From contig JBCCQQ010000109.1 of NCBI GenBank assembly GCA_039024555.1, positions 1 to 10,317 of the forward strand: a stretch of DNA of 10,317 nucleotides, in the 5' to 3' direction. The notes under the pieces are model-generated. The model saw only the letters and a list, made by a program, of their open reading frames with translations. It was not told the DNA's origin and made no database searches. Below, piece by piece: positions 1 through 10,317 of the stretch (position 1 is the first letter of the stretch; each line of letters starts with the position of its first letter). The translations under genes were made by a program, and so were the position numbers. Source of the stretch: Cyanobacteria bacterium P01_D01_bin.156 (GTDB taxonomy: Bacteria; Cyanobacteriota; Cyanobacteriia; Phormidesmidales; Phormidesmidaceae).

Positions 1-2
1 CA

Positions 3-3000
3 GGCGATGATCGCCCCGATCCGGTCCTCTGTAGTTTGGGTACAGTGCCCCTGACGGTGGCGGATAAACTCTGGCACTACTTTGTGGAAGGCGGTGCGGA
101 AAACCTGGCTTACGGGCTGCAATATCTGGCTCAAACCTGTCTGGATTATTCCTATAAGGTGCCTGAGCCGCAGGCTGTGCCGCAGTGGGGGGAGTATGAA
201 TGGGAAAGGGCTACGGTGTACACACAAGTTCCGGAAACTAGCGTTCAGGGTTGCCTAACCCCCTCTAACTCCCCCTTGGTATGGGGGAGGACCAAAGTTT
301 CCCCCCTTACCAAGGGGGGATTAAGGGGGGTAATGCAGGATTTCGATCTCTCTTCCGAGATGTGTGTACACGCTAGAGGAGAGGGAGAGAGGGGACAGCA
401 ACCCACCGTGGCGATTTTCTTCTATCGGGCTCACTATCTATCTGGCAATACCCGCGTCATTGATTCCCTTTGCGAAGCACTAAAGTCTCGTGGGCTCTCT
501 CCACTTCCTCTGTTTTTGCCATCGCTGCGCAATCCAGAGATTCAGGCTCAGTTATTAACCGAACTGACCAAAAATCAGAGTATTGATCTCATCCTTAATA
601 CCACTGGATTCTCTCTCGCTAAGCTAAATACCGAATCTCCCCAGGTAGATTTTTGGCAATGGCTGGATGTGCCAGTAATTCAGGTAATGCTCAGCGGTGG
701 AAGTGAAGAGCAGTGGCAACAACAATGGCGAGGATTGTCTCCCCGAGATATTGCTATGAATGTAGCGTTGCCGGAGGTGGATGGTCGTATTATTGGTCGG
801 GCAGTATCGTTTAAAGTGGTGCAGACTGACCACCCTCAGCTAGAAACGACGGTGATGGCCTATGAGCCAAAGCCTGACCGGATTAATTTTGTTGCTGACC
901 TGGCGGTTAATTGGGTGACGCTGCGACGTACGACAGCTGAGCAGCGCAAAGTGGCGTTAATTCTGGCCAACTATCCCAACAAAGATGGTCGTTTGGCCAA
1001 TGGAGTGGGCTTAGATACTCCGGCTAGCTGTCTGGAAATTTTGCGATCGCTCCACTCAGCAGGTTACACCCTCGGCTCTATGCCCCCAGAAGAGATTCTG
1101 TCCGCTACCAGTGCGGATCTAATCAACTGGCTCACCCAGGGCATCACGAATGATCCAGAGGGGCGAGACATGCGCCCTGTCCGTCAAACCCTTTCCGCTA
1201 GGGATTACCAGGCATATTTCCAAACATTGCCTGCATCCGTACAACAGGGTGTCATCGAGCGATGGGGAGAGGTAGACCCCAATGCCGATATTCCCATTGC
1301 CGGGATGCAGCTGGGCCACATTTTTGTGGGCATTCAACCCTCCCGTGGCTATGACGATGATCCCTCGTTGAACTACCATGCCCCAGATTTAGAGCCCACC
1401 CATCGGTATCTGGCGTTTTATGCCTGGCTGCGTTTTCAGTGGGGTGCCCAGGCTGTTGTCCATGTGGGCAAACATGGCAATTTGGAATGGCTGCCGGGCA
1501 AGAGTTTGGCGCTCTCTGAAAATTGTTATCCAGAGGTAGCACTGGGGCCAATGCCTCACTTATATCCGTTTATTGTTAACGATCCGGGAGAAGGCACCCA
1601 GGCCAAACGTCGGGCCCAGGCGGTAATTTTAGATCACCTGACGCCACCCTTAACCCGTGCTGAACTGTACGGTTCGCTCCATCGATTGGAAGCGCTGATT
1701 GACGAGTATTACGATGCAGAGTCGTTGGATCCGAAGAGACTTCCTGTGATTCGCGATCGCATCTGCTCCCTAGTCATCCAAGAAAATCTACAACGGGATC
1801 TCAGTCTGTTGCCAGGTTTAGCTCCCGTTCTGCCGCAGCTGCAACTATCCCAAGATCGGCCCGGATTGCGACGAAATGATCAATCCTTAGATTCCAACAT
1901 TTTCAGCGAATTTATTACCCAAACAGATGGCTACCTGTGCGATCTCAAAGAAGCCCAAATTCGGGATGGGTTGCACATTCTAGGACAGTGTCCCGATGGC
2001 AGACAGCTGCGGGATTTGATGGTGGCCATTGCGCGGCAGCCGGGGCCTGGTCGCCAGGGACTGACGTGTGCGATCGCAGAAGATTGGGGTTGGGATCTAC
2101 ACTTTGATCCGCTCACAGCGGATTTAGGTACCGTCATTAAAAATCTGAAAATACCAGAGACTTTGTTACAAGCTGATAAGCTATCTCCCCAAACCTTGCA
2201 CACCACCGGGGACGCTGTCGCTGTACTAGAACACCAGGCAGCTTGCTGGGTAGAACAGTTACTAGCTAAGGAGCTAGGTGGAGAGAATGCTGTGAGCGAT
2301 TTCAGCCCTATTTCTGGCCCAAAAACAACCACAGAACTTAGCTGGATAAGCCAGTGGTTACGGCCTAGACTGGCGCAAACCTTCGAAGAAATCACCCATC
2401 TGTTACATGGCTTAGACGGCGGCTATGTGCCCAGCGGTTCCTCCGGCGCCCCCACTCGGGGACGGGCAGATGTGCTGCCCACTGGGCGGAATTTCTACAG
2501 TGTTGATATTCGCGGATTGCCCACGGAAAGTGCCTGGGATGTGGGCCGTCGAGCGGCGGAAAATCTGGTGGAGCGCTACACCCAGGAGCAGGGAGACTAT
2601 CCTAAAACCCTAGGACTCTCGATGTGGGGCACCGCCACCATGCGCACAGGTGGAGACGATATGGCTGAAGCCCTAGCGCTCCTTGGAGTGAGGCCCGTAT
2701 GGGATGGTGTGGGCCGCCGGGTAGTAGACTTTGAAATCCTGCCCCTGTCGGTGCTGCAGCGCCCTCGCGTTGATGTCACATTGCGCATTTCAGGCTTCTT
2801 TCGCGATGCCTTTCCCAACTTGATCGATCTGTTTAACTCAGCGGTGGCAGCGGTTGCCGCCCTGGATGAACCCGCCGATATGAATCCCCTGGCGGCCCAA
2901 GTAAAGCAAGAATCAGACCATTGGCAGTCCCTTGGATTTACCCCTGAGGATGCAGACATTCGTGCCCAATATCGGGTGTTTGGCTCTAAGCCAGGGGCCT

Positions 3001-3725
3001 ATGGAGCAGGTCTGCAAGGACTGATTGAGGCCCAAAACTGGACTAGCGATCGCGACCTGGTCCAGGCTTATATCAACTGGAGCTGCTATGCCTATGGGCG
3101 ACCCGGCACACCTTCAAAACAGCCACAGTCGGACAAACTGCGCTCTGCCTCAGTTCCTGATGTTTTTCAACAACGGTTAGGACAGCTGCAAATTGTGTTG
3201 CATAACCAAGATAATCGAGAACACGATCTACTAGACTCTGACGACTACTATCAGTTTCAGGGAGGCTTAGTCGCTGCTGTACGTGCTACTCAGGGCAAAA
3301 ATCCCACAGCCTATTTCGGCGATCACTCCCGCCCTCAACAGCCCCGCATTCGTTCCTTACCCGAGGAGATCAGCCGAGTTTATCGATCCCGTGTCGTCAA
3401 TCCTAAATGGATTGCTGGTGTCATGCGCCATGGTTATAAAGGAGCTTTTGAGCTGGCTGCAACGATGGATTACCTCTTTGCCTATGATGCAACCACCCAC
3501 GCGGTGTCTGATTTTATGTATGCTGGCGTTGCCGAGGCGTATATTCTAGACGACAACGTTCAACGCTTTATCCAGACCCACAATCCCTGGGCGTTACGGG
3601 ATATGTCAGAACGGTTGTTAGAAGCCCATCAGCGAGGATTATGGCAGCAGGTTTCGCCCGAAATGCTAGAACAGCTGAGGGCAACTGTGTTAGACGCAGA
3701 AGCTCACATTGAGGAAACACTATGA
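3..3725 (+). CDS. cobN: Cobaltochelatase subunit CobN (5'-truncated at the window edge; contains an in-frame 54-aa insertion)
   Basis: The frame is open from base 3 (GDDRPDPVLCSLGTVPL...), so the TTG at 36 is not the true start. CobN motifs are present: LANYPNKDGRLANGVGLDTP, HVGKHGNLEWLPGK, YPFIVNDPGEGTQAKRR, LPTGRNFYSVD, WGTATMRTGGDD, RVDVTLRISGFFRDAFP, HNQDNREHDLLDSDDYYQFQGG, NPKWIAGVMRHGYKGA. The adjacent cobO supports CobN rather than ChlH. Confidence 0.96.
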   Translation, partial: GDDRPDPVLCSLGTVPLTVADKLWHYFVEGGAENLAYGLQYLAQTCLDYSYKVPEPQAVPQWGEYEWERATVYTQVPETSVQGCLTPSNSPLVWGRTKVSPLTKGGLRGVMQDFDLSSEMCVHARGEGERGQQPTVAIFFYRAHYLSGNTRVIDSLCEALKSRGLSPLPLFLPSLRNPEIQAQLLTELTKNQSIDLILNTTGFSLAKLNTESPQVDFWQWLDVPVIQVMLSGGSEEQWQQQWRGLSPRDIAMNVALPEVDGRIIGRAVSFKVVQTDHPQLETTVMAYEPKPDRINFVADLAVNWVTLRRTTAEQRKVALILANYPNKDGRLANGVGLDTPASCLEILRSLHSAGYTLGSMPPEEILSATSADLINWLTQGITNDPEGRDMRPVRQTLSARDYQAYFQTLPASVQQGVIERWGEVDPNADIPIAGMQLGHIFVGIQPSRGYDDDPSLNYHAPDLEPTHRYLAFYAWLRFQWGAQAVVHVGKHGNLEWLPGKSLALSENCYPEVALGPMPHLYPFIVNDPGEGTQAKRRAQAVILDHLTPPLTRAELYGSLHRLEALIDEYYDAESLDPKRLPVIRDRICSLVIQENLQRDLSLLPGLAPVLPQLQLSQDRPGLRRNDQSLDSNIFSEFITQTDGYLCDLKEAQIRDGLHILGQCPDGRQLRDLMVAIARQPGPGRQGLTCAIAEDWGWDLHFDPLTADLGTVIKNLKIPETLLQADKLSPQTLHTTGDAVAVLEHQAACWVEQLLAKELGGENAVSDFSPISGPKTTTELSWISQWLRPRLAQTFEEITHLLHGLDGGYVPSGSSGAPTRGRADVLPTGRNFYSVDIRGLPTESAWDVGRRAAENLVERYTQEQGDYPKTLGLSMWGTATMRTGGDDMAEALALLGVRPVWDGVGRRVVDFEILPLSVLQRPRVDVTLRISGFFRDAFPNLIDLFNSAVAAVAALDEPADMNPLAAQVKQESDHWQSLGFTPEDADIRAQYRVFGSKPGAYGAGLQGLIEAQNWTSDRDLVQAYINWSCYAYGRPGTPSKQPQSDKLRSASVPDVFQQRLGQLQIVLHNQDNREHDLLDSDDYYQFQGGLVAAVRATQGKNPTAYFGDHSRPQQPRIRSLPEEISRVYRSRVVNPKWIAGVMRHGYKGAFELAATMDYLFAYDATTHAVSDFMYAGVAEAYILDDNVQRFIQTHNPWALRDMSERLLEAHQRGLWQQVSPEMLEQLRATVLDAEAHIEETL
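211..376. mobile_element. MITE-like element inserted in frame within cobN
   Basis: Terminal inverted repeats CTAcgGTGTACACACA (211-226) and TGTGTGTACACgcTAG (361-376), with a perfect 11-bp core at 216-226/361-371. TA (212-213, 374-375), or GCTA (210-213, 372-375), is duplicated on both sides. Removing 214-375 (162 bp) restores a CTAG site and keeps the frame. Internal G/C-run hairpins lie at 269-289 and 300-320. Confidence 0.75.
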
Positions 3726-3958
3726 CCAACCCCACCCCAGAAGAACAGGCCCGACTTCAGAAAATAAAGGCTGCTAAAGATCAGTCCCGCGCTGACCGCG
3801 AAGGCAATGAGAAGGGCCTATACCTTTTATTTACTGGCTTAGGTAAAGGTAAAACCAGTAGCGCCATGAATCTGGTATATCGACATCTAGCTCACGATAT
3901 GAGCGTGGCTGTGGTGCAGTTTATTAAAAATGACAGTGCGTTTCCCGATGGCGATCGC
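1043..3958. repeat. HIP1 octamers (GCGATCGC), five dispersed copies
   Basis: Exact copies at 1043-1050, 1753-1760, 2070-2077, 3046-3053 and 3951-3958. None was seen after 3958. Confidence 0.9.
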
Positions 3959-4342
3959 ATCATGTTAGAAAAACTCAAGGAACGAGGATTTCCAGTGAGT
4001 GTTGCTACCCTTGGTGGAGGTTTTACTTGGGAAACTCAGAACCCAGATCAAGACCAACAGTTGGCAGAACAAGCCTGGCAAACGGCCACCAAGCTGATTG
4101 CAGATCCCGACATTTCTCTAGTTGTTCTAGATGAATTGCACATTGCCCTTAAAAAGGCTCGTCTAGATCTAGCTTCTGTGCTTACCGGTATTCAGTCCCG
4201 CCCCATTAATTGCCATGTGGCCAGTACTGGACGCTATGCTCCCCAGGAATTAATTGATATCGCTGATCTAGTAACAGAAATGACCCGTATCAAGCATCCC
4301 ATCAGTGCAGGTATTCCAGCTCAAATGGGGATTGAATATTAA
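3722..4342 (+). CDS. cobO: Cob(I)yrinic acid a,c-diamide adenosyltransferase (CobO/BtuR family)
   Basis: P-loop-like TGLGKGKTSSA, VVQFIK, GGGFTWETQN, LVVLDEL, TGRYAP..LIDIADLVTEM..IKHP and C-terminal GIEY. Its ATG overlaps the cobN stop (ATGA, 3722-3725). Confidence 0.93.
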   Translation: MTNPTPEEQARLQKIKAAKDQSRADREGNEKGLYLLFTGLGKGKTSSAMNLVYRHLAHDMSVAVVQFIKNDSAFPDGDRIMLEKLKERGFPVSVATLGGGFTWETQNPDQDQQLAEQAWQTATKLIADPDISLVVLDELHIALKKARLDLASVLTGIQSRPINCHVASTGRYAPQELIDIADLVTEMTRIKHPISAGIPAQMGIEY

Positions 4343-4445: not shown

Positions 4446-4544
4446 ATGTCGTCATCTCAATCTGGTCAGGTTAATTTCAAGCAGCTGCGGGAACAGGTTG
4501 GCCTTTCTCAGGAAGCGCTAGCACGCATTGTTAAAGCCATATAG
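4446..4544 (+). pseudogene. Truncated XRE/Cro-C1 family helix-turn-helix regulator
   Basis: Translates as MSSSQSGQVNFKQLREQVGLSQEALARIVKAI*. FKQLREQVGLSQEALARIV matches the first two helices of HTH_3 domains, but the frame stops before the recognition helix, next to IS debris. Confidence 0.65.
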
Positions 4545-4611: not shown

Positions 4612-4866
4612 AGATGCGCCCTTATCAACGGTGATTACTCTAGGGTCAACCTATTGGGGACACCAAGTACCTCCCTGAGAAAGCGTTTGGCAGTTTTGAC
4701 ATCTCATTTAGCACCGAGCATAAAGTCGAGAGTATTCCCTTCGGGATCAATGGCTTGATAGAAGTACTTGCAAACGACTTTGATTTTGATGCTAGTCTGG
4801 CTGACTTCCTAGAAATCAATCATTGGCAGATTTCAGAGACGGGCGACAGCGCTGATCAATCTCTGG
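4612..4866 (-). mobile_element. Degenerate IS6-family (IS240/IS26-like) DDE transposase fragment
   Basis: Minus-strand translation across frameshifts: PEIDQRCRPSLKSAND / F*EVSQTSIKIKVVCKYFYQAIDPEGNTLDFMLGAK*DVKTAKRFLREVLG / PRVITVDK. This parallels the IS6 pattern PE.DKR.RP.LK.TNDSWRVDETYIK.KG.W.YLYRAVD..GNTLDF.LSAKRD..AAKRF...PRVITVDK. It has in-frame stops (TGA at 4706-4704), a TGAT duplication and loss of the first catalytic Asp. Confidence 0.88.
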
Positions 4867-4940: not shown

Positions 4941-5579
4941 TTAAACTATATTTCCAGAAAAATCATTAATCAAAAAAAAGATACCTTCTGACATTAACTG
5001 AATTGAAATAGCTAGGATGAGAAAGCCGAGAACCTGGGTAAATGCCCTCAATCCCCTTTGACCGAGTAACTTAACTAGAGGGCCTCCTAATGTTAGGAAA
5101 AGGTACAAAAGCAAACCTAGTCCTAAAATTCCCAGCAGTGCGCCTGCATACCCGGCCGGGTGTGTGCTCTTAGCTGCGAGCCCAATCACCATGCCAATTG
5201 CTCCTGGCCCGCTGATTAAGGGAATTGCTAAAGGAATTAGCGTGATGTCATCCTGCAGACTCTCAGATACTCTTTGTGACTGTTTGGATGTTTCAGATGC
5301 GGAGATCATCATCCAAGCTGTTCGGGCTAATAACAAACCTCCTGCTATTTGTAATACTCCTAGAGAAATGCCAAAGAAGTCCAACACAAAGCGTCCCAGC
5401 ACTAGGGCAATTGCCAGAACAACAATAACGTTGATAGAGACTCGACGAGCCAGACGGCCGCGACGGTGGGGTGCAATGTCAACTGTCAGGCTATGAAAAA
5501 TGGGAACTGCACCTATTGGATCAGTGATAGGGAATAGTGCCAAAAAAGTGCCAGTTGCAGCAGGTATTAGGTGTTCCAT
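4941..5579 (-). CDS. MarC family inner membrane protein
   Basis: 212 aa with about six hydrophobic segments. Family motifs: LFPITDPIGAVPIF, FFGISLGVLQIAGGLLL, IPLAIPLISGPGAI, LGFLILAISIQ. Confidence 0.92.
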   Translation of the reverse strand: MEHLIPAATGTFLALFPITDPIGAVPIFHSLTVDIAPHRRGRLARRVSINVIVVLAIALVLGRFVLDFFGISLGVLQIAGGLLLARTAWMMISASETSKQSQRVSESLQDDITLIPLAIPLISGPGAIGMVIGLAAKSTHPAGYAGALLGILGLGLLLYLFLTLGGPLVKLLGQRGLRAFTQVLGFLILAISIQLMSEGIFFLINDFSGNIV

Positions 5580-5627
5580 AGCAGAAACGAAATTGTGTTG
5601 ACATAGCCGCCTAAAAGCTCACTGGGC

Positions 5628-5645
5628 TATGTAGATAAATGTAAA
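5628..5645 (-). promoter_or_regulatory. HLR1-like (RpaB-type) site upstream of marC
   Basis: The minus strand reads TTTACATT-ta-TCTACATA against the consensus (G/T)TTACA(T/A)(T/A)-N2-(G/T)TTACA(T/A)(T/A), with one mismatch. It lies 48 nt upstream of the marC ATG. Confidence 0.5.
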
Positions 5646-5896
5646 TAATTTTCAGGGTTGTATAAGGTGAGTGAGCCGTAATTCATGTGGTCGGTTTTCC
5701 GAATCACACTTTCTAAGTAATTAAAAAGATTGGCATATCAAGCCTTCTAAGGCTCTCAAGCACTAGCGGAAATTTACATTATTTAGGCGTCATACTATCT
5801 TTTCAAGGCGTATAGTGCTGGGAATGGATCCGGTCTATGGGTATTGGTGATCATCCGTGGAGACGAAATCATCCGGAGTATCAGCAACGCCGAATA

Positions 5897-5965
5897 AAAA
5901 TTTGCTCTCGTTTTATCGATTCTGACATTTAAATGTCTTTGATCGAAAAGGCAAGAGCAAATTTT
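5897..5965. repeat. 69-nt imperfect inverted repeat downstream of the MATE gene (possible terminator or RNA processing/stability hairpin)
   Basis: AAAATTTGCTCT (5897-5908) pairs with AGAGCAAATTTT (5954-5965). TTTTaTCGAT pairs with ATCGAAAA. The centre is the perfect palindrome GACATTTAAATGTC (5924-5937). Confidence 0.7.
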
Positions 5966-6004
5966 GCTTGGTAGTTCTTTTGTATTGTTGGCTTGAACAA
6001 TTTG

Positions 6005-7387
6005 TTACTGAGTAGCAGCCTCTGGTAAAGCTAAAAATTTTTCAGATTCTGTTGTGCCAGTGAGAGCATTTATTCGGCGAGATTGCCACAGCCAAGCTCC
6101 TAGACCAACTATGCTATTAGATACGCAAGCAGCACCGAAAATACCAACAATTCCAAATAATTGGCTACCTAAATAGGCTAAGGGAACATAAAGCAGTAGC
6201 AGTCGGCATAACGACATCACCATGGCAGGAAGCGGTTTTCCCAAAGCGTTAGATGCTGAACCAGCAGTCAAAACAATACTCAGAGCACCATAGCTAATGG
6301 GCACCAGTGTTAGATAAATACTTGCGCTAGAAATAACGCCAGGATTGCTATCAAACCAGGTAATAATCTGAAATGATGATACTCCCAGTAAGATACCGAC
6401 AATAGCTCCCCAGCCCAGGCAAAAACCGACGCTCAACCGCATTGCTTGTTTTACCCTGTCATATTTTTGAGCGCCCCAGTTTTGCCCAATAAAGGGACCG
6501 ATGCTAGCTGAAATCGCTATAGGGACTATTAGAGCTATAGCTTCTATTCTTGAGGCTAGTCCAAAACCAGCAACGGCCTCAGCACCATAACGAGCCATCA
6601 AACCCGTGATCAGGCCAACAGACAGTGGTGAAATTAAATTAGTTGCGGCTGCAGGTACACCAATAAATAGTAGGCGATGCCAATTTTTGACCAGTGTTGC
6701 CAAACTTGGCACGGTAAATGTCAGTAAGCGCTCTCGGAAGTGGAGAAAGGCAAGCGATGCAATCAGGGTACCTGCACGTGAACATACTGTTGCTAAGGCA
6801 GCCCCTTTAATACCCAGGGCTGGTAATGGACCCCAACCAAAGATAAGTAGTGGATCGGCCACAATGTTAACAAGTGCGGCAAAGGTCATAATTAGACTAG
6901 GAACAACTGTGTTACCAGAAGCGCGAATGGCACTGTTCCCAACTAAAGGAACAACCAGGAAGGCCATTCCTAAATACCAAATGCCCATATAGTCACGAAT
7001 CATTGGAAGTAGGTCAGGTCTAGCTCCCAAAGCCGTAAATAACGGTCTGATGGTCATCAGACCAAGAACGGCAAGAATCCCAACAATCAGGAAAGATAGC
7101 AGCAGACTATCTGTAGTCAGGCGCTGCACATTCCGACGGTTCCCTTTACCGATTTCTCTAGCAATAACAGAGGCTGCGCCTGTACCTAAGCCCATGGCTA
7201 CGCTTGCCAAGATGGACACTACCGGAAATGTAAAACTGATAGCTGCTAGCTCATTCGTGCCCAACTGAGCAATAAAGTACGTGTCAGCTAGACTAAACGC
7301 CAATACTGCCAAGATACCCCAAACCATGGGAAGTGATAGCTTAAGGAGCTGAAGGGAAACTCGACCTGTTGTGAGAGAAGACTGCAT
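6005..7387 (-). CDS. MATE family efflux transporter (DinF-like)
   Basis: Two-repeat, ~12-TM architecture. Motifs: LLKLSLP..., ADTYFIAQLG..ELAA, IRASGNT..P, VNIVADPLLIFG.G..PALGIKGAALAT, GQNWGA. The ATG at 7387 (MQSSLTTG) is preferred over the TTG at 7444, but the start is uncertain. Confidence 0.93.
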   Translation of the reverse strand: MQSSLTTGRVSLQLLKLSLPMVWGILAVLAFSLADTYFIAQLGTNELAAISFTFPVVSILASVAMGLGTGAASVIAREIGKGNRRNVQRLTTDSLLLSFLIVGILAVLGLMTIRPLFTALGARPDLLPMIRDYMGIWYLGMAFLVVPLVGNSAIRASGNTVVPSLIMTFAALVNIVADPLLIFGWGPLPALGIKGAALATVCSRAGTLIASLAFLHFRERLLTFTVPSLATLVKNWHRLLFIGVPAAATNLISPLSVGLITGLMARYGAEAVAGFGLASRIEAIALIVPIAISASIGPFIGQNWGAQKYDRVKQAMRLSVGFCLGWGAIVGILLGVSSFQIITWFDSNPGVISSASIYLTLVPISYGALSIVLTAGSASNALGKPLPAMVMSLCRLLLLYVPLAYLGSQLFGIVGIFGAACVSNSIVGLGAWLWQSRRINALTGTTESEKFLALPEAATQ

Positions 7388-7660
7388 TGTTAAGCTGGAG
7401 TGTTTGGCGGGACGTGAGCCATCAAATTGAAGTGACAAACTCAACAGATACTATGGGTGATGAGAAATTATTGCGATCTTGGAGAAGAAACTCGCTGTAG
7501 TCAGCTAAATCGTCTAAGCCTAAGCAAGTCAATGCTATTTCTGCACTTAACCAGAAAAACATTTTCAACAGTAGCTTTTGCCAATGAATTTGCATGATCC
7601 TGCATTGCTAATGAGCACTGACTTTCTTAGATAGAACTAAAAGGTTGCTAAAACAGCTTG

Positions 7661-8158
7661 CTAGGCCGTTAGTGGGTTAATACCCATCTTGCCAACGATG
7701 AGACGTAGGACAGCGATCTGCTGATTAAAACCAAGGGCTATGAGCTTATTCAGAACTGCCGTTGCTGGTGCAGAGAACTGATAGTCCTGTGGTACCGGAA
7801 TGACATCTCCGGAGCGCATCCACTCGGCCAACTGATACCAAAATGCCAATTTGTTGTTGCTAGTCAGACATCCGTAATCGCGAGTCATCGGATTGTTAGT
7901 TCCTACGACCAAATCGCGCATGAACTGTAATTGCTCTTCATGGGATAGATTAGCCACTTGATAGATTAAAGTTCCGGCTAGCTTAATCCGATCTGTTGCA
8001 CCAGATGGCGCAGGCGTCACTAAACCTCCCATGTTTTCATACAGAAACCATAAGAGACCTAATTGGTCATCAACAGATAGCCTTTGGATGGAGTTCACTG
8101 CATTGGGGACAGCGGCAAAGATATTAGAGTAAATGGGTTTGTCAGCAGCAATATTCAT
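7661..8158 (-). CDS. Helical carotenoid protein (HCP; orange carotenoid protein N-terminal domain only)
   Basis: 165 aa from ATG 8158. Carot_N-like motifs: RLSVDDQLGLLWFLY..MG..VTPAP.GA, EQLQFMRDL, YG.L..NNKLAFWYQLAE.M, V.PVP.DY, L.FNQQI.VLR..V..MG..PL. It has no NTF2-like C-terminal domain. The ORF-track extension to 8236 runs through promoter-like AT-rich DNA. Confidence 0.93.
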   Translation of the reverse strand: MNIAADKPIYSNIFAAVPNAVNSIQRLSVDDQLGLLWFLYENMGGLVTPAPSGATDRIKLAGTLIYQVANLSHEEQLQFMRDLVVGTNNPMTRDYGCLTSNNKLAFWYQLAEWMRSGDVIPVPQDYQFSAPATAVLNKLIALGFNQQIAVLRLIVGKMGINPLTA

Positions 8159-8195
8159 AAAGTGAGTTTCTAGAATCTGAAGCGTTATATTTGGT

Positions 8196-8225
8196 AATGT
8201 AACGTAATATAAATTTATATTGCAA
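8196..8225 (-). promoter_or_regulatory. Putative HCP promoter overlapped by an HLR1-like site
   Basis: The minus strand reads TTTATATT-ac-GTTACATT (8213-8196; one mismatch to HLR1). Candidate -35 TTGCAA (8225-8220) and -10 TACATT (8201-8196) are 18 nt apart. A perfect palindrome AATATAAATTTATATT lies at 8206-8221. Confidence 0.55.
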
Positions 8226-8249
8226 CTACTTGACACTGATCTTGAGTCT

Positions 8250-9179
8250 TCAAACTACGGATTGAGGATAAATAAACTGATATCCAGTGGCTTTAAGCTT
8301 GTAGTTGCTAACGCGGACGCTTTTGCCTGGCAGGCTGAGTCTAGACTGGTCCCAATGTACAGAGGGCAACCCGTATCGAGAGCAGATTTGCTCTAGCTGG
8401 TCTTTGATCGTCAGCTGGCTATCATCCACCAGATTGTAGATACCCTGCAGCTGATTGAGCCGAGCGAATTCAATCACGCCAACGATGTCATCCCGATGGA
8501 TCCAATTGATAACGCGCTCGCCCCTACCCGGTAACGTCATGCCTGCCATTCCCCCAAGCATGCCAACCAACTCTCGACCTGGACCATAAATTCCCCCTAG
8601 TCGAAGGATGCAGATTCTTTGGTCCTCACTGTTTGCCTGAGATATGATTTGCTCTGCCTCATAGAGCATTTGGCTGCGAGGTTCGGACGGGAAAATAGCA
8701 GCATTTTCATCTACCCACTCTCCCTGACGGTCTCCATAGACAGAGCAACTGCTGAGATAAATAACCTGTTTCACACTCGGTGTTTGTTTCAACGCTTGAA
8801 GGAGATTTTTAGCCGTAGTGAGATAGGTTTGTTCGTAGGTTGCCTCATCCGCTACTTGGAATCCCGTTGGCGCGACGCTGACAACCACAGTGTCTTGAGC
8901 TTGGACCAGAGATTGAATAGCATTGGCATCATCTCCTGTTATGACAGCCACTTTGGAGAGAAGAGACTGGAGTGATGCAACCCGTTCTTGTCTGGTCGTT
9001 GTCCCTGTGACAAAGTGGCCTTGCTCTTGCCAACAGGCAGCTAATGCACTGCCAACATAGCCGCACCCTAGAATAGCGATATTCTCATAGAGCTGACGGC
9101 GCTGAGCCCGTTGGCGTAGCAACTGCTGCAGATAAGCCATATCCAGCTCAGAGCTGTTGCTATTAACAGAGTTATTCAT
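8250..9179 (-). CDS. NAD(P)-dependent epimerase/dehydratase-like atypical SDR (YeeZ-like)
   Basis: Rossmann motif IAILGCGYVG, V.GTTT, YLSSCSVYGD..G.WVDE, EAE, LRLGGIYGPGR, NWIHRDD, YNLVDD and C-terminal VSN.KLK..GY.F.YP. Confidence 0.9.
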   Translation of the reverse strand: MNNSVNSNSSELDMAYLQQLLRQRAQRRQLYENIAILGCGYVGSALAACWQEQGHFVTGTTTRQERVASLQSLLSKVAVITGDDANAIQSLVQAQDTVVVSVAPTGFQVADEATYEQTYLTTAKNLLQALKQTPSVKQVIYLSSCSVYGDRQGEWVDENAAIFPSEPRSQMLYEAEQIISQANSEDQRICILRLGGIYGPGRELVGMLGGMAGMTLPGRGERVINWIHRDDIVGVIEFARLNQLQGIYNLVDDSQLTIKDQLEQICSRYGLPSVHWDQSRLSLPGKSVRVSNYKLKATGYQFIYPQSVV

Positions 9180-9271
9180 GGTGATAATAAGGTGGATTAA
9201 AAACTGGATTGGGTAAATCTTGTTAGCTAGTCTCTCTAGCTTTACTCTTCAAAAACACAATGCTGTATGCC

Positions 9272-9850
9272 TCAGCTAATAAGACTTCCTGCCGAAGTAG
9301 CTAGAGGGGCCACTTGACTGTCTTGACTGACTCTGACCCAGCGACGATAATCTTGAACAAGTTGATTTTCTAACCGAGACTTTATGGTCAACAAGATACC
9401 ATTGAGGAATGCTTTGCCAGTTGTCTGCAAAACTTGTTCAGGAACCAGTTTGAGAGCTGGCGGTGTTTCTACTTGCACTATTAAATCTGCTTTTCCGAGT
9501 AATTCGGTGGTTGTTTCCTGGCGATGGGGTACCAGTATGCCAGATAACTCTAAATTGAAAGACCGATTCAGGCGCTCTGCACCTCGAATCTCACAATTTA
9601 GAGATCGCAACCGAAGTGTTCCATCAGGGTTTATCCAGACTTGTAACTCAGCAATAGGCTCAAACCGCAGCATCATAAATTGCAAGGAACGAAGCCGTAA
9701 ACGAAAATGAGACGAACTCAACTGCTCAATTCGACTGGAATCAGTGATCGCTTGAACCAGCCGTTGAGGCTGGTTCAGGTAGTGCTCAATCGAAATTGCT
9801 TCGTTGGACACATTCATCTTGAGCGTTTTAGTTACATGGAAATGTTGCAT
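9272..9850 (-). CDS. DUF1997 family protein
   Basis: 192 aa with the cyanobacterial DUF1997 pattern IEHYL.QPQRLV.AI...RIEQL....FRL..R.L.F....FEP...L.VW, L.G.ADL.VQVE.PP.L...P..VL..TG...LNGIL.TIK.RL..QL..DYR.W. GGAG lies 7 nt before the ATG. Confidence 0.85.
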   Translation of the reverse strand: MQHFHVTKTLKMNVSNEAISIEHYLNQPQRLVQAITDSSRIEQLSSSHFRLRLRSLQFMMLRFEPIAELQVWINPDGTLRLRSLNCEIRGAERLNRSFNLELSGILVPHRQETTTELLGKADLIVQVETPPALKLVPEQVLQTTGKAFLNGILLTIKSRLENQLVQDYRRWVRVSQDSQVAPLATSAGSLIS

Positions 9851-9964
9851 GACAAGACTCCAAATCTATTAACATGCTGTTTGAGAACTCATCCAAGCAC
9901 TTTAGATTGGGGTAAATCTTTTCTGATATGAAACGTGTTTACTCGCACTTTTCCTCACATGTAG

Positions 9965-10066
9965 TTATGAGGCTTTTTCGGTAAATTCTTGCTTGGAAAA
10001 TTGATTCAGCGCAATTCCAGTTGACCAAAGGAATAGCAGAAAAGTTACAAAGGTCATCAAAGGCAT
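9965..10066 (-). CDS. Putative 33-aa single-transmembrane microprotein (not in the ORF track)
   Basis: MPLMTFVTFLLFLWSTGIALNQFSKQEFTEKAS*. GGAGG (10079-10075) lies 8 nt upstream of ATG 10066. An alternative in-frame ATG at 10081 gives 38 aa. It is co-oriented with the downstream genes. Confidence 0.55.
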   Translation of the reverse strand: MPLMTFVTFLLFLWSTGIALNQFSKQEFTEKAS

Positions 10067-10247
10067 CGCAGCGGCCTCCATTTATTGATTTTTGTGAACA
10101 ACTACGCCAGTCATTCTAATTAACCATCCTTTGGAAGATAGAGGGGGGAAACCCGTACAAAGGCATATTTCTGATGGGTATACAGATACTTCGGTTATCC
10201 GGCTTCTACGATTACGGCTCTCCACGTAGGCCAGAGTCCGAGAAATG

Positions 10248-10265
10248 TTTACATTAGTTAACAAA
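10248..10265 (+). promoter_or_regulatory. HLR1-like (RpaB-type) site in a probable divergent promoter region
   Basis: TTTACATT-ag-TTAACAAA, one mismatch to HLR1. It overlaps a + strand -35 TTAACA (10258-10263), 17 nt before -10 TAACCT (10281-10286), and a minus-strand -10-like TAATGT (10256-10251). Confidence 0.6.
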
Positions 10266-10302: not shown

Positions 10303-10317
10303 ATGGACATCCAACAA
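10303..10317 (+). CDS. Possible start of a divergently transcribed gene (MDIQQ..., runs off the window)
   Basis: ATG just downstream of the candidate + strand promoter. Only five codons are visible. Confidence 0.25.

Follow-up and report, generated by a model that had tools for sequence, protein, structure and literature searches.

The window analysed here, meaning the whole stretch of DNA at its full length of 10,317 nucleotides, is an entire contig of 10.3 kb from Cyanobacteria bacterium P01_D01_bin.156, whose parent cyanobacterial assembly (6.6 Mb, 149 contigs) evidently lacks some genes of the real genome. Following cobN and cobO, it carries seven minus-strand genes around a stand-alone helical carotenoid protein (HCP), encoding a membrane microprotein of 33 or 38 amino acids, a DUF1997 protein, a short-chain dehydrogenase/reductase (SDR), the HCP with its Carot_N domain, a protein of 57 amino acids, a MATE transporter and MarC (Table 1). 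The block belongs to a cluster common to distantly related, mostly marine cyanobacteria, in which strong light probably switches on the dimming and dismantling of the antenna.

An earlier reading of the sequence (the original prediction) had placed six co-oriented genes at this site, all of which were confirmed by family matches or, in the case of the microprotein, by its frame, while the 57-amino-acid gene had been overlooked. In the order from the microprotein to marC, the intergenic gaps measure 114, 92, 91, 65, 34 and 425 bases. All seven frames are whole, and every measurable gene is under purifying selection, with ratios of non-synonymous to synonymous substitution (dN/dS) of 0.07-0.56 in 18 pairs; both MarC pairs were saturated. 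The values were 0.20-0.33 for DUF1997, 0.13-0.30 for the SDR, 0.07-0.40 for the HCP, 0.19-0.53 for the 57-amino-acid protein, 0.12-0.13 for MATE and 0.14-0.56 (3 pairs) for the 33-amino-acid microprotein.

Table 1. Features of the gene block and its borders, in positions of the window
Feature	Positions	Strand	Remarks
Start of HEAT-repeat gene (NblB-like, bilin-lyase-type)	10303..10317	+	Divergent; first five codons, then contig end
HLR1-like site, head	10248..10265	+	One mismatch; covers predicted -10 (10250-10255) of HEAT gene
Bidirectional promoter core	10113..10223	.	Alignment of 20 homologous promoters
Membrane microprotein, 33 aa	9965..10066	-	38 aa from upstream ATG at 10081; no family matched
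DUF1997 protein, cassette paralogue	9272..9850	-	PF09366, 161 bits
Atypical SDR	8250..9179	-	PF01370, 65 bits
HCP promoter	8196..8225	-	TTGCAA (8220-8225), 18 bases, TACATT (8196-8201); HLR1-like site 8196-8213 over -10
Helical carotenoid protein, stand-alone Carot_N	7661..8158	-	PF09150, 178 bits; 165 aa
Conserved microprotein, 57 aa	7422..7595	-	Hydrophobic helix, then invariant acidic motif
MATE transporter, cassette clade	6005..7387	-	TIGR00797, 200 bits (cut-off 147)
marC promoter	5628..5680	-	TACGG box at 5680; TACATT (5638-5643) 37 bases on; HLR1-like site 5628-5645
MarC/NAAT membrane protein	4941..5579	-	TIGR00427, 157 bits (cut-off 99)
IS6-family transposase remnant, block edge	4707..4808	-	DDE_Tnp_IS240, E 1.8e-4, under gathering score; in-frame stops

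The HCP subclade and its neighbourhood

The HCP consists of the Carot_N domain alone, without the NTF2-like C-terminal domain, and its nearest solved structures are 8QX5 and 9H41, the numbering of which fits Anabaena HCP4. R57 and F144 (aligned to R65 and F152 of HCP4 and to OCP positions 60 and 147) are invariant in 14/14 subclade rows and R152, corresponding to the mark Arg155, is present in 13 of the 14; an Arg and a Phe have been named as marks of HCP4/5 (PMC12059629). The 24 HCPs of the subclade, which are 68-98% identical among themselves and at most 57% identical to other HCPs, make up one side of a 100/100 branch in a tree with 88 rows from the genome scan plus five further loci. For two named strains, Table S1 of PMC12059629 gives 5 and 2 HCP5 proteins and no other HCPs, and the copies that we found in these strains (4+1 and 1+1) equal the published counts. 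Indirectly, through these counts, the protein appears to represent a distinct HCP5-type subclade, which is rare, being present in 6 of the 401 genomes sampled from the class. In vitro, both HCP4 and HCP5 were shown to quench phycobilisomes without photoactivation, and the Discussion of the same paper calls the function of HCPs an enigma (PMC12059629). The window's HCP would thus not be of a type characterised for singlet-oxygen quenching, a property that the original prediction had noted for several HCPs.

Like the published pair of HCP4 or HCP5 and CTDH (Anabaena HCP4; HCP5 of PMC12059629), the subclade combines a stand-alone Carot_N domain with the clade-marking Arg and Phe. It differs from this pair in carrying one extra residue in the loop that precedes the Arg, in the missing adjacent CTDH and in its flanking genes, namely the SDR, nblD or the 57-amino-acid gene, and MATE. 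HCPs are described to need CTDH for carotenoid loading (PMC6123778); no CTDH gene adjoins the window's HCP, and one lies elsewhere in the genome. OCP, FRP and UbiA-like proteins gave no match in this 149-contig assembly.

To survey the neighbourhood, one genome per species was scanned around HCPs, which gave 79 loci from the 80 top-ranking of 179 matches, and a metagenome scan yielded 67; dereplication left 54 subclade and 70 other HCP or OCP loci, and a locus was counted only where the tested side had full room. MATE follows HCP in 21/32 subclade loci vs 0/53 others, and a whole SDR precedes it in 16/31 vs 0/53. The same holds for nblD (18/34 vs 0/58), DUF1997 (9/26 vs 0/47), the 57-amino-acid gene (7/39 vs 0/64) and a UbiA-like gene (6/15 vs 0/44), whereas clpC is found in both groups (6/21 vs 4/41) and CTDH or its usual partner gene shows the reverse pattern (2/34 vs 50/58). 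Among loci of at least 6 kb, one or more of clpC, nblA, nblD and HEAT occur in 24/27 subclade loci and in 6/50 others. These neighbourhood counts overstate independence, because many distant loci share a few related sample series. Records titled Pleurocapsa and Calothrix show the order DUF1997-SDR-HCP-MATE, and those titled Xenococcus, Richelia and Synechococcus show SDR-HCP or HCP-MATE. In a record titled Leptolyngbya sp. Heron Island J (L082), which represents a cultured carrier, SDR, HCP, the 57-amino-acid gene and MATE are all whole. The conservation of the neighbourhood, which the original prediction had proposed as a check, thus extends beyond the genus and across cyanobacterial families, limited to one rare HCP5-type subclade.

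Two further observations concern the other HCP loci and the immediate surroundings of HCP. Most other HCP loci carry, after HCP-CTDH, an opposite-strand gene of 150-165 codons without a name (e.g., L022:5686-6183, and most of L104-L159), for which Pfam and NCBIfam gave no match. In L176, L177, L184, L188, L190 and L235, the gene immediately preceding or following HCP is an inserted rhodanese gene.

The fullest version of the operon reads microprotein, clpC, DUF1997, SDR, HCP, nblD, MATE, UbiA-like, ndhD, (DUF3598), nblA, marC, NblB-like HEAT and rhodanese, and L087, L183, L201, L233, L198, L179 and L180 carry all or much of it. The 86-amino-acid Cys-rich frame after HCP is NblD (90.6 bits against a cut-off of 80); NblA, a ClpC-type ATPase, NdhD, CrtW, FRP, HliP and photolyases were confirmed in fuller or related loci, where psb34, sigma factors, a site-2 protease and rhodanese were also seen as further members. 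A weakly UbiA-like membrane protein of ~300 amino acids, without an NCBIfam family, follows the cassette MATE in many loci (e.g., L094:11952-12866). The divergent HEAT gene, of which the window holds the start, is whole in two close relatives (219 amino acids; L030/L031), and its paralogue in L021 contains HEAT/HEAT_PBS repeats.

In the degradation system described in PMC7865187, NblD opens phycocyanin, NblA tags it and delivers it to ClpC, and NblB removes bilins. The fuller operons encode its counterparts, i.e., NblD above the cut-off, NblA, a ClpC paralogue and an NblB-like HEAT protein, and the set of nblA, nblD, clpC and NblB-like gene is complete in, e.g., L087, L201 and L233. In the model strain of PMC7865187, nblD lies on its own, and nitrogen starvation induces it via NtcA; here, by contrast, a single mobile cluster unites the genes with a quencher and with HLR1 promoters, and of these genes the window retains the HEAT gene alone. 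The companions of HCP in the fuller copies are therefore mostly genes of phycobilisome degradation, which argues against the line of carotenoid binding, redox chemistry and export drawn in the original prediction.

Promoters and HLR1-like sites

HLR1-like sites had been predicted at the head of the block, before HCP and before marC, and all three were recovered with one mismatch each, above chance. Three matches with up to two mismatches were reached in 1/200 dinucleotide shuffles of the window, and two sites in 0/1000 base shuffles of the 1072 intergenic bases. Genome-wide, 36 sites with at most one mismatch have the 2-base spacer vs 5-11 with each of five other spacers, and 9 of these 36 fall in the block and two related loci. 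Each of the three sites overlaps a -10 hexamer whose position is predicted from sequence. The head site lies ~150 bases from the predicted start of the block's own transcript; judged by its place, it belongs to the divergent HEAT gene and not to the block, which corrects the original prediction on this point. With marC set apart from MATE by the longest gap and provided with its own predicted promoter, the block reads as three promoters and not as one unit.

Repressing HLR1 sites are reported between -38 and +23 of the transcription start, with release in high light (PMC6525291), and nblA has been described as a horizontally acquired case of RpaB/HLR1 repression in low light (PMC11633204). The sites found here resemble this regulon in their architecture, with two octamers 2 bases apart over the -10/start region, i.e., in a position for de-repression, and the cluster has members of the same kind (hli, nblA, ndhD). 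It differs in that the genes are clustered in a mobile cassette and that a second conserved box stands ~38 bases before the -10 hexamer. An HLR1 site 46-58 bases before the HCP start codon is kept in records titled Pleurocapsa, Xenococcus, Calothrix and Richelia, and a site with at most one mismatch within 120 bases of the HCP start occurs in 34/48 subclade loci vs 10/68 other HCP or OCP loci, the starts of the latter being extrapolated. Its retention across lineages makes high-light co-regulation of the neighbourhood likely. The originally proposed co-regulated unit therefore stands in part, in likely high-light control through the site before HCP, while three promoters and the foreign marC (see below) speak against a single unit.

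The core of the head promoter contains inverted TACGGnTnTnCC-type boxes starting at 10213 (+) and 10157 (-). In 20 aligned promoters a TAnnnT hexamer follows such a box at a distance of 37-39 bases, once per direction, with the predicted block-side -10 at 10113-10118 (-). The layout of the marC promoter equals the left arm of the head promoter, and distant copies carry an HLR1 site just downstream of the block-side -10. As a lead, the additional box could be an Rre1 box in some copies only: of the boxes compared with the consensus GTnCGG[t/g] given in PMC13232611, the block-side one fits, the HEAT-side, marC and most distant ones differ at the first base, and the genome contains 3476 occurrences of this short consensus. 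A structured RNA at 10100-10245 was ruled out, the apparent helix being two inverted promoter boxes of which each arm also occurs alone; Rfam gave no match there, the covariation term was -0.14 and a double change was seen in 2/17 pairs. Likewise, a 60-amino-acid frame at 10082-10264 was rejected, as neither start nor frame is conserved in the alignment of relatives. A scan for sigma-70 promoters and terminators returned no more than shuffled sequence.

Reductase, transporters and microproteins

The SDR has a conserved N-terminal extension of 30-40 residues and an invariant GxGxxG motif (47/47), and its catalytic YxxxK is absent, with neither residue present in 27 aligned rows. The nearest solved structures, 3GPI (E 2e-28) and 3IUS (E 7e-19), are both uncharacterised; we take them to be YeeZ-like. 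They share with the SDR the Rossmann motif, the overall sequence and the missing YxxxK, and differ in that the SDR possesses the extension. Biliverdin reductase was absent among the 5 solved structures that matched at E 1e-5, and biliverdin reductase B, to which no sequence kinship was detected, serves as an analogy.

Hints for its role come from loci without HCP. The long-N SDR was found in 13/401 genomes by a strict search, eight of them without the HCP subclade, and in 6 of these 8 loci phycobiliprotein, bilin-synthesis or nblA genes adjoin, vs 0/8 for the short paralogue (taken from 7 of 15 pebB-bearing genomes probed and from the window's genome). It stands beside hemH-pcyA, an NblB-like gene and a phycobiliprotein-fold gene (L285, L286), beside nblA (L288, L290, the latter also with cpeA, cpeY and haem oxygenase), between cpeBAY-HEAT and cpeT-cpeS (L291) and beside HEAT-cpeS-pebA-pebB-cpcB (L292), whereas L287 and L289 lack antenna or bilin gene neighbours. 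A pebB gene is present in 10/13 SDR genomes vs 123/401 overall; a strict link to phycoerythrin was ruled out on this count. In the window's genome, cpeB is truncated at the end of a contig. One family includes three genomes in which the SDR and clpC, together with DUF1997, marC or a sigma factor, lie on a different contig from HCP, and MATE is beside HCP in 2 of these 3. From these neighbours, the SDR appears to be tied to antenna and bilin turnover and not to carotenoids, as the original prediction had assumed, and reduction or binding of bilins would be its likeliest job. The cassette SDR is 42% identical to the genome's housekeeping paralogue. Plasmid records yielded no SDR match at E 1e-40, and an NblA-like nature of the extension was ruled out by profile comparison (probability <1%).

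The cassette DUF1997 protein shares 31% identity with the housekeeping copy of the genome. Its language-model look-alikes are DUF3809 and CoxG (0.82-0.87), a lead that points to a fold that is probably of the ligand-binding SRPBCC/START type; the PDB gave no match.

MATE comprises two MatE stretches with 11 hydrophobic peaks and scores under the cut-off of every named equivalog. Its identity is 64-75% with cassette copies from distant loci, 53-61% with housekeeping copies and 54% with the housekeeping paralogue of its own genome. Strong matches occur in 22/401 genomes, and of the six at 66% or more, five lie beside a subclade HCP and one at a contig edge. The cassette MATEs form a clade (support 1.00), the subgroups of which mirror those of HCP. 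The neighbours of housekeeping MATEs (14 loci) gave no substrate hint.

The window's MarC is 78-80% identical to the MarC of a sister island composed of sigma, marC, clpC, HCP-CTDH, crtW-like, HEAT and site-2 protease genes, and 51-55% identical to the operon's MarC; the two fall into separate clades (support 1.00). Among close relatives, marC stands beside MATE only in a 99%-identical one. By this placement, the window's marC came from the sister island and not from the operon, so that its membership in the unit, as originally predicted, is not upheld.

The 33-amino-acid microprotein has one hydrophobic segment and 2 matches (33 and 31 amino acids) among 1.84 billion representatives, and look-alikes of 27-39 amino acids stand at the operon head in 9 of the 13 loci examined. 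By analogy, it resembles SliP4/HliR1 (PMC5126843, PMC12850537), a single-helix membrane protein of ~35 amino acids that heads an RpaB-controlled transcript into the next gene; HliR1 is reported only from Synechocystis, and the likeness is one of layout. The 57-amino-acid protein has 29 homologues and belongs to a family without a Pfam model, found in 71/301 cyanobacterial genomes, mostly as stand-alone genes and often in several copies (L042-L070). In the cassette, its gene occupies the slot of nblD in distant copies. A general partnership of this family with HCP or MATE was rejected, since HCP or MATE lies within 1.5 kb in 0/29 other loci (marC and clpC in one); HLR1 sites with up to two mismatches precede 3/29 of these genes vs 1/29 control stretches. 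Kinship of the protein with NblA was ruled out by profile comparison (probability <1%).

The cassette carries several signs of mobility: the flanks differ in each relative, transposases occur inside or beside copies, one genome holds four copies, and the IS6 remnant borders the block in the window. Moreover, identities of 70-77% across families vs 48-55% between paralogues of one genome suggest horizontal spread. The window's genome has a second copy (HEAT, promoter, HCP, 57-amino-acid gene and MATE; end of G000:C35 and G000:C2:1-10000; L021, L022), which is cut by a repeat inside the 57-amino-acid gene and has a broken MATE. Beyond this second copy follow nblA, rhodanese, acyltransferase, HCP-CTDH, crtW-like, HEAT and site-2 protease genes, with five HLR1 sites in 8 kb.

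Other parts of the window were also inspected. The cobN-cobO region (window 1-4342) is duplicated at G000:C89:2171-6372, with 88% DNA identity and 93% identity of the CobO protein. A palindromic in-frame element with 36-base arms lies in cobN (252-337, +); it has several genomic copies, is missing from the paralogous cobN and accounts for weak Rfam microRNA matches. Between cobO and marC lies a truncated helix-turn-helix frame (4446-4544, +), as does the IS6 remnant, and between MATE and the marC promoter (5858-5976) there are a 35-base inverted repeat and a short element that has more than 20 genomic look-alikes.

A probable high-light operon for quenching and dismantling phycobilisomes

We favour, with moderate confidence, the reading of the block as a reduced mobile version of a high-light operon that is repressed by RpaB and that quenches and dismantles phycobilisomes. 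Judging from the motif positions, RpaB would occupy the HLR1 sites over the promoters in low light and keep the operon off, and would release them in high light. The HCP5-type single-domain protein, which is without a light switch of its own, would then be made, loaded with ketocarotenoid by a CTDH encoded elsewhere, and could bind the phycobilisome core and drain its excitation. Co-expressed NblD, NblA, ClpC and HEAT proteins would take the antenna apart by opening, tagging, stripping and degrading it. This dismantling arm may also include the SDR and, probably, DUF1997, most likely for reducing or holding freed bilin, and MATE may serve the HCP arm by exporting a small molecule. The window's genome keeps HEAT, microprotein, DUF1997, SDR, HCP, the 57-amino-acid gene and MATE under selection, and would draw on nblA, nblD, clpC, CTDH and a crtW-like gene, which are located elsewhere in it, with marC added from the sister island with its own promoter. 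In this picture, the gene content, its conservation, the motifs and the selection are observed, and the regulation, the quenching and every substrate are proposed.

Several observations weigh against this reading. The window itself holds no nblA, nblD or clpC and only the start of the HEAT gene, and the HLR1 site on the block side of the head promoter is decayed in the window's lineage. The HEAT paralogue in L021 reaches 87 bits and the HEAT protein beside the SDR in L285 reaches 142 bits to NblB NF045915, both under the cut-off of 300. MATE is lacking in 11/32 and a whole SDR in 15/31 subclade loci; marC and nblA are each found in 0/8 (0/35 others) in the strict count, and in 6/14 once short contigs with a match are admitted. 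A few related metagenome series account for most of the distant loci, and the six SDR-antenna loci represent about four independent arrangements. A pebB match is missing in two of the 13 SDR genomes and in the window's genome. In the genus, 3/7 full-layout copies have an eroded SDR and a transposase interrupts DUF1997 in one, so that both genes are dispensable. Finally, a crtW or UbiA-like gene follows MATE in several loci, which would fit carotenoid or prenyl chemistry, and L296 (G078:C247) combines a cassette-type MATE with UbiA-like, crtW, hli and rhodopsin genes and marC, with no HCP in view and the upstream side cut off.

A first alternative, which we consider rather unlikely, is that only regulation holds these genes together: a pre-wired high-light package with shared RpaB-type promoters would travel, each gene would act alone (in quenching, proteolysis, cyclic electron flow, DNA repair or efflux), and SDR, DUF1997, MATE and MarC would have no common substrate. 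The three separate promoters would suit such a package, as would the free shuffling of members, including photolyases, hli, psb34, sigma factors, site-2 protease and rhodanese, the separation of the SDR and HCP arms in one family, the share of genomic HLR1 sites in three such loci and the marC swapped in from another island. However, the cassette SDR, MATE and DUF1997 are dedicated paralogues and not housekeeping genes, gene order is kept across families, and the SDR meets bilin and nbl genes again in unrelated settings.

An extended version of the quenching and dismantling operon would have the long-N SDR reduce or sequester freed phycobilins, DUF1997 hold the pigment and MATE export the product, making up a complete, horizontally spread system that quenches, dismantles and detoxifies, with the 33- and 57-amino-acid microproteins as regulators. 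In this complete form we regard it as doubtful.

More improbable still is the original line around carotenoids or apocarotenoids, according to which DUF1997 would carry the carotenoid instead of CTDH, the SDR would reduce oxidation products, and MATE and MarC would export them. Although the adjacent CTDH, needed for HCP loading (PMC6123778), is lost, DUF1997 resembles, as a lead, SRPBCC lipid-binding folds, and MATE, the most faithful partner of HCP, often stands beside crtW or a UbiA-like gene, DUF1997 is present in a minority of the loci only and CTDH is available elsewhere in the genome. In addition, without HCP the SDR follows bilin and not carotenoid genes, the two arms are on separate contigs in three genomes, and marC was not an original member of this copy. 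A decaying remnant without present function in this genome, to which the loss of clpC, nblD, nblA and ndhD from the block, the broken second copy and the IS remnant at the edge might point, is very improbable given seven whole frames, purifying selection in all 18 measurable pairs and an intact HCP promoter.

In the literature searched, with subscription papers beyond reach, we found no description of the cluster, as the original prediction had supposed. No paper joined HCP with DUF1997 or DUF1997 with cyanobacteria, none among the matches listed joined HCP, HLR1 and RpaB or, on the genomic context and clades of HCPs, described the cluster, and a match on a cluster of OCP, nblA and clpC was without MATE. 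The parts are already known; their assembly into one cluster is not known from this literature. For DUF1997, otherwise mentioned in plant and algal omics papers among the matches listed, and for two unannotated microprotein families, the cluster provides a first functional context.

To our knowledge, the fate of bilins stripped from phycobiliproteins is poorly resolved, and a literature search on bilin fate gave no match. Guilt by association makes the long-N SDR a candidate for handling freed antenna pigments. Should the genes be held together by regulation only, the cluster would be hardly more than a neat case of a high-light regulon that is mobile. If the preferred reading of an operon for quenching and dismantling phycobilisomes holds, an HCP5 that quenches without photoactivation would need control at the level of synthesis, which an HLR1 site over the -10 hexamer would give. 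This site, together with the co-location with NblD, NblA and ClpC, offers a testable answer to the question of how a switchless HCP5 is controlled, and a cultured strain carries the cassette.

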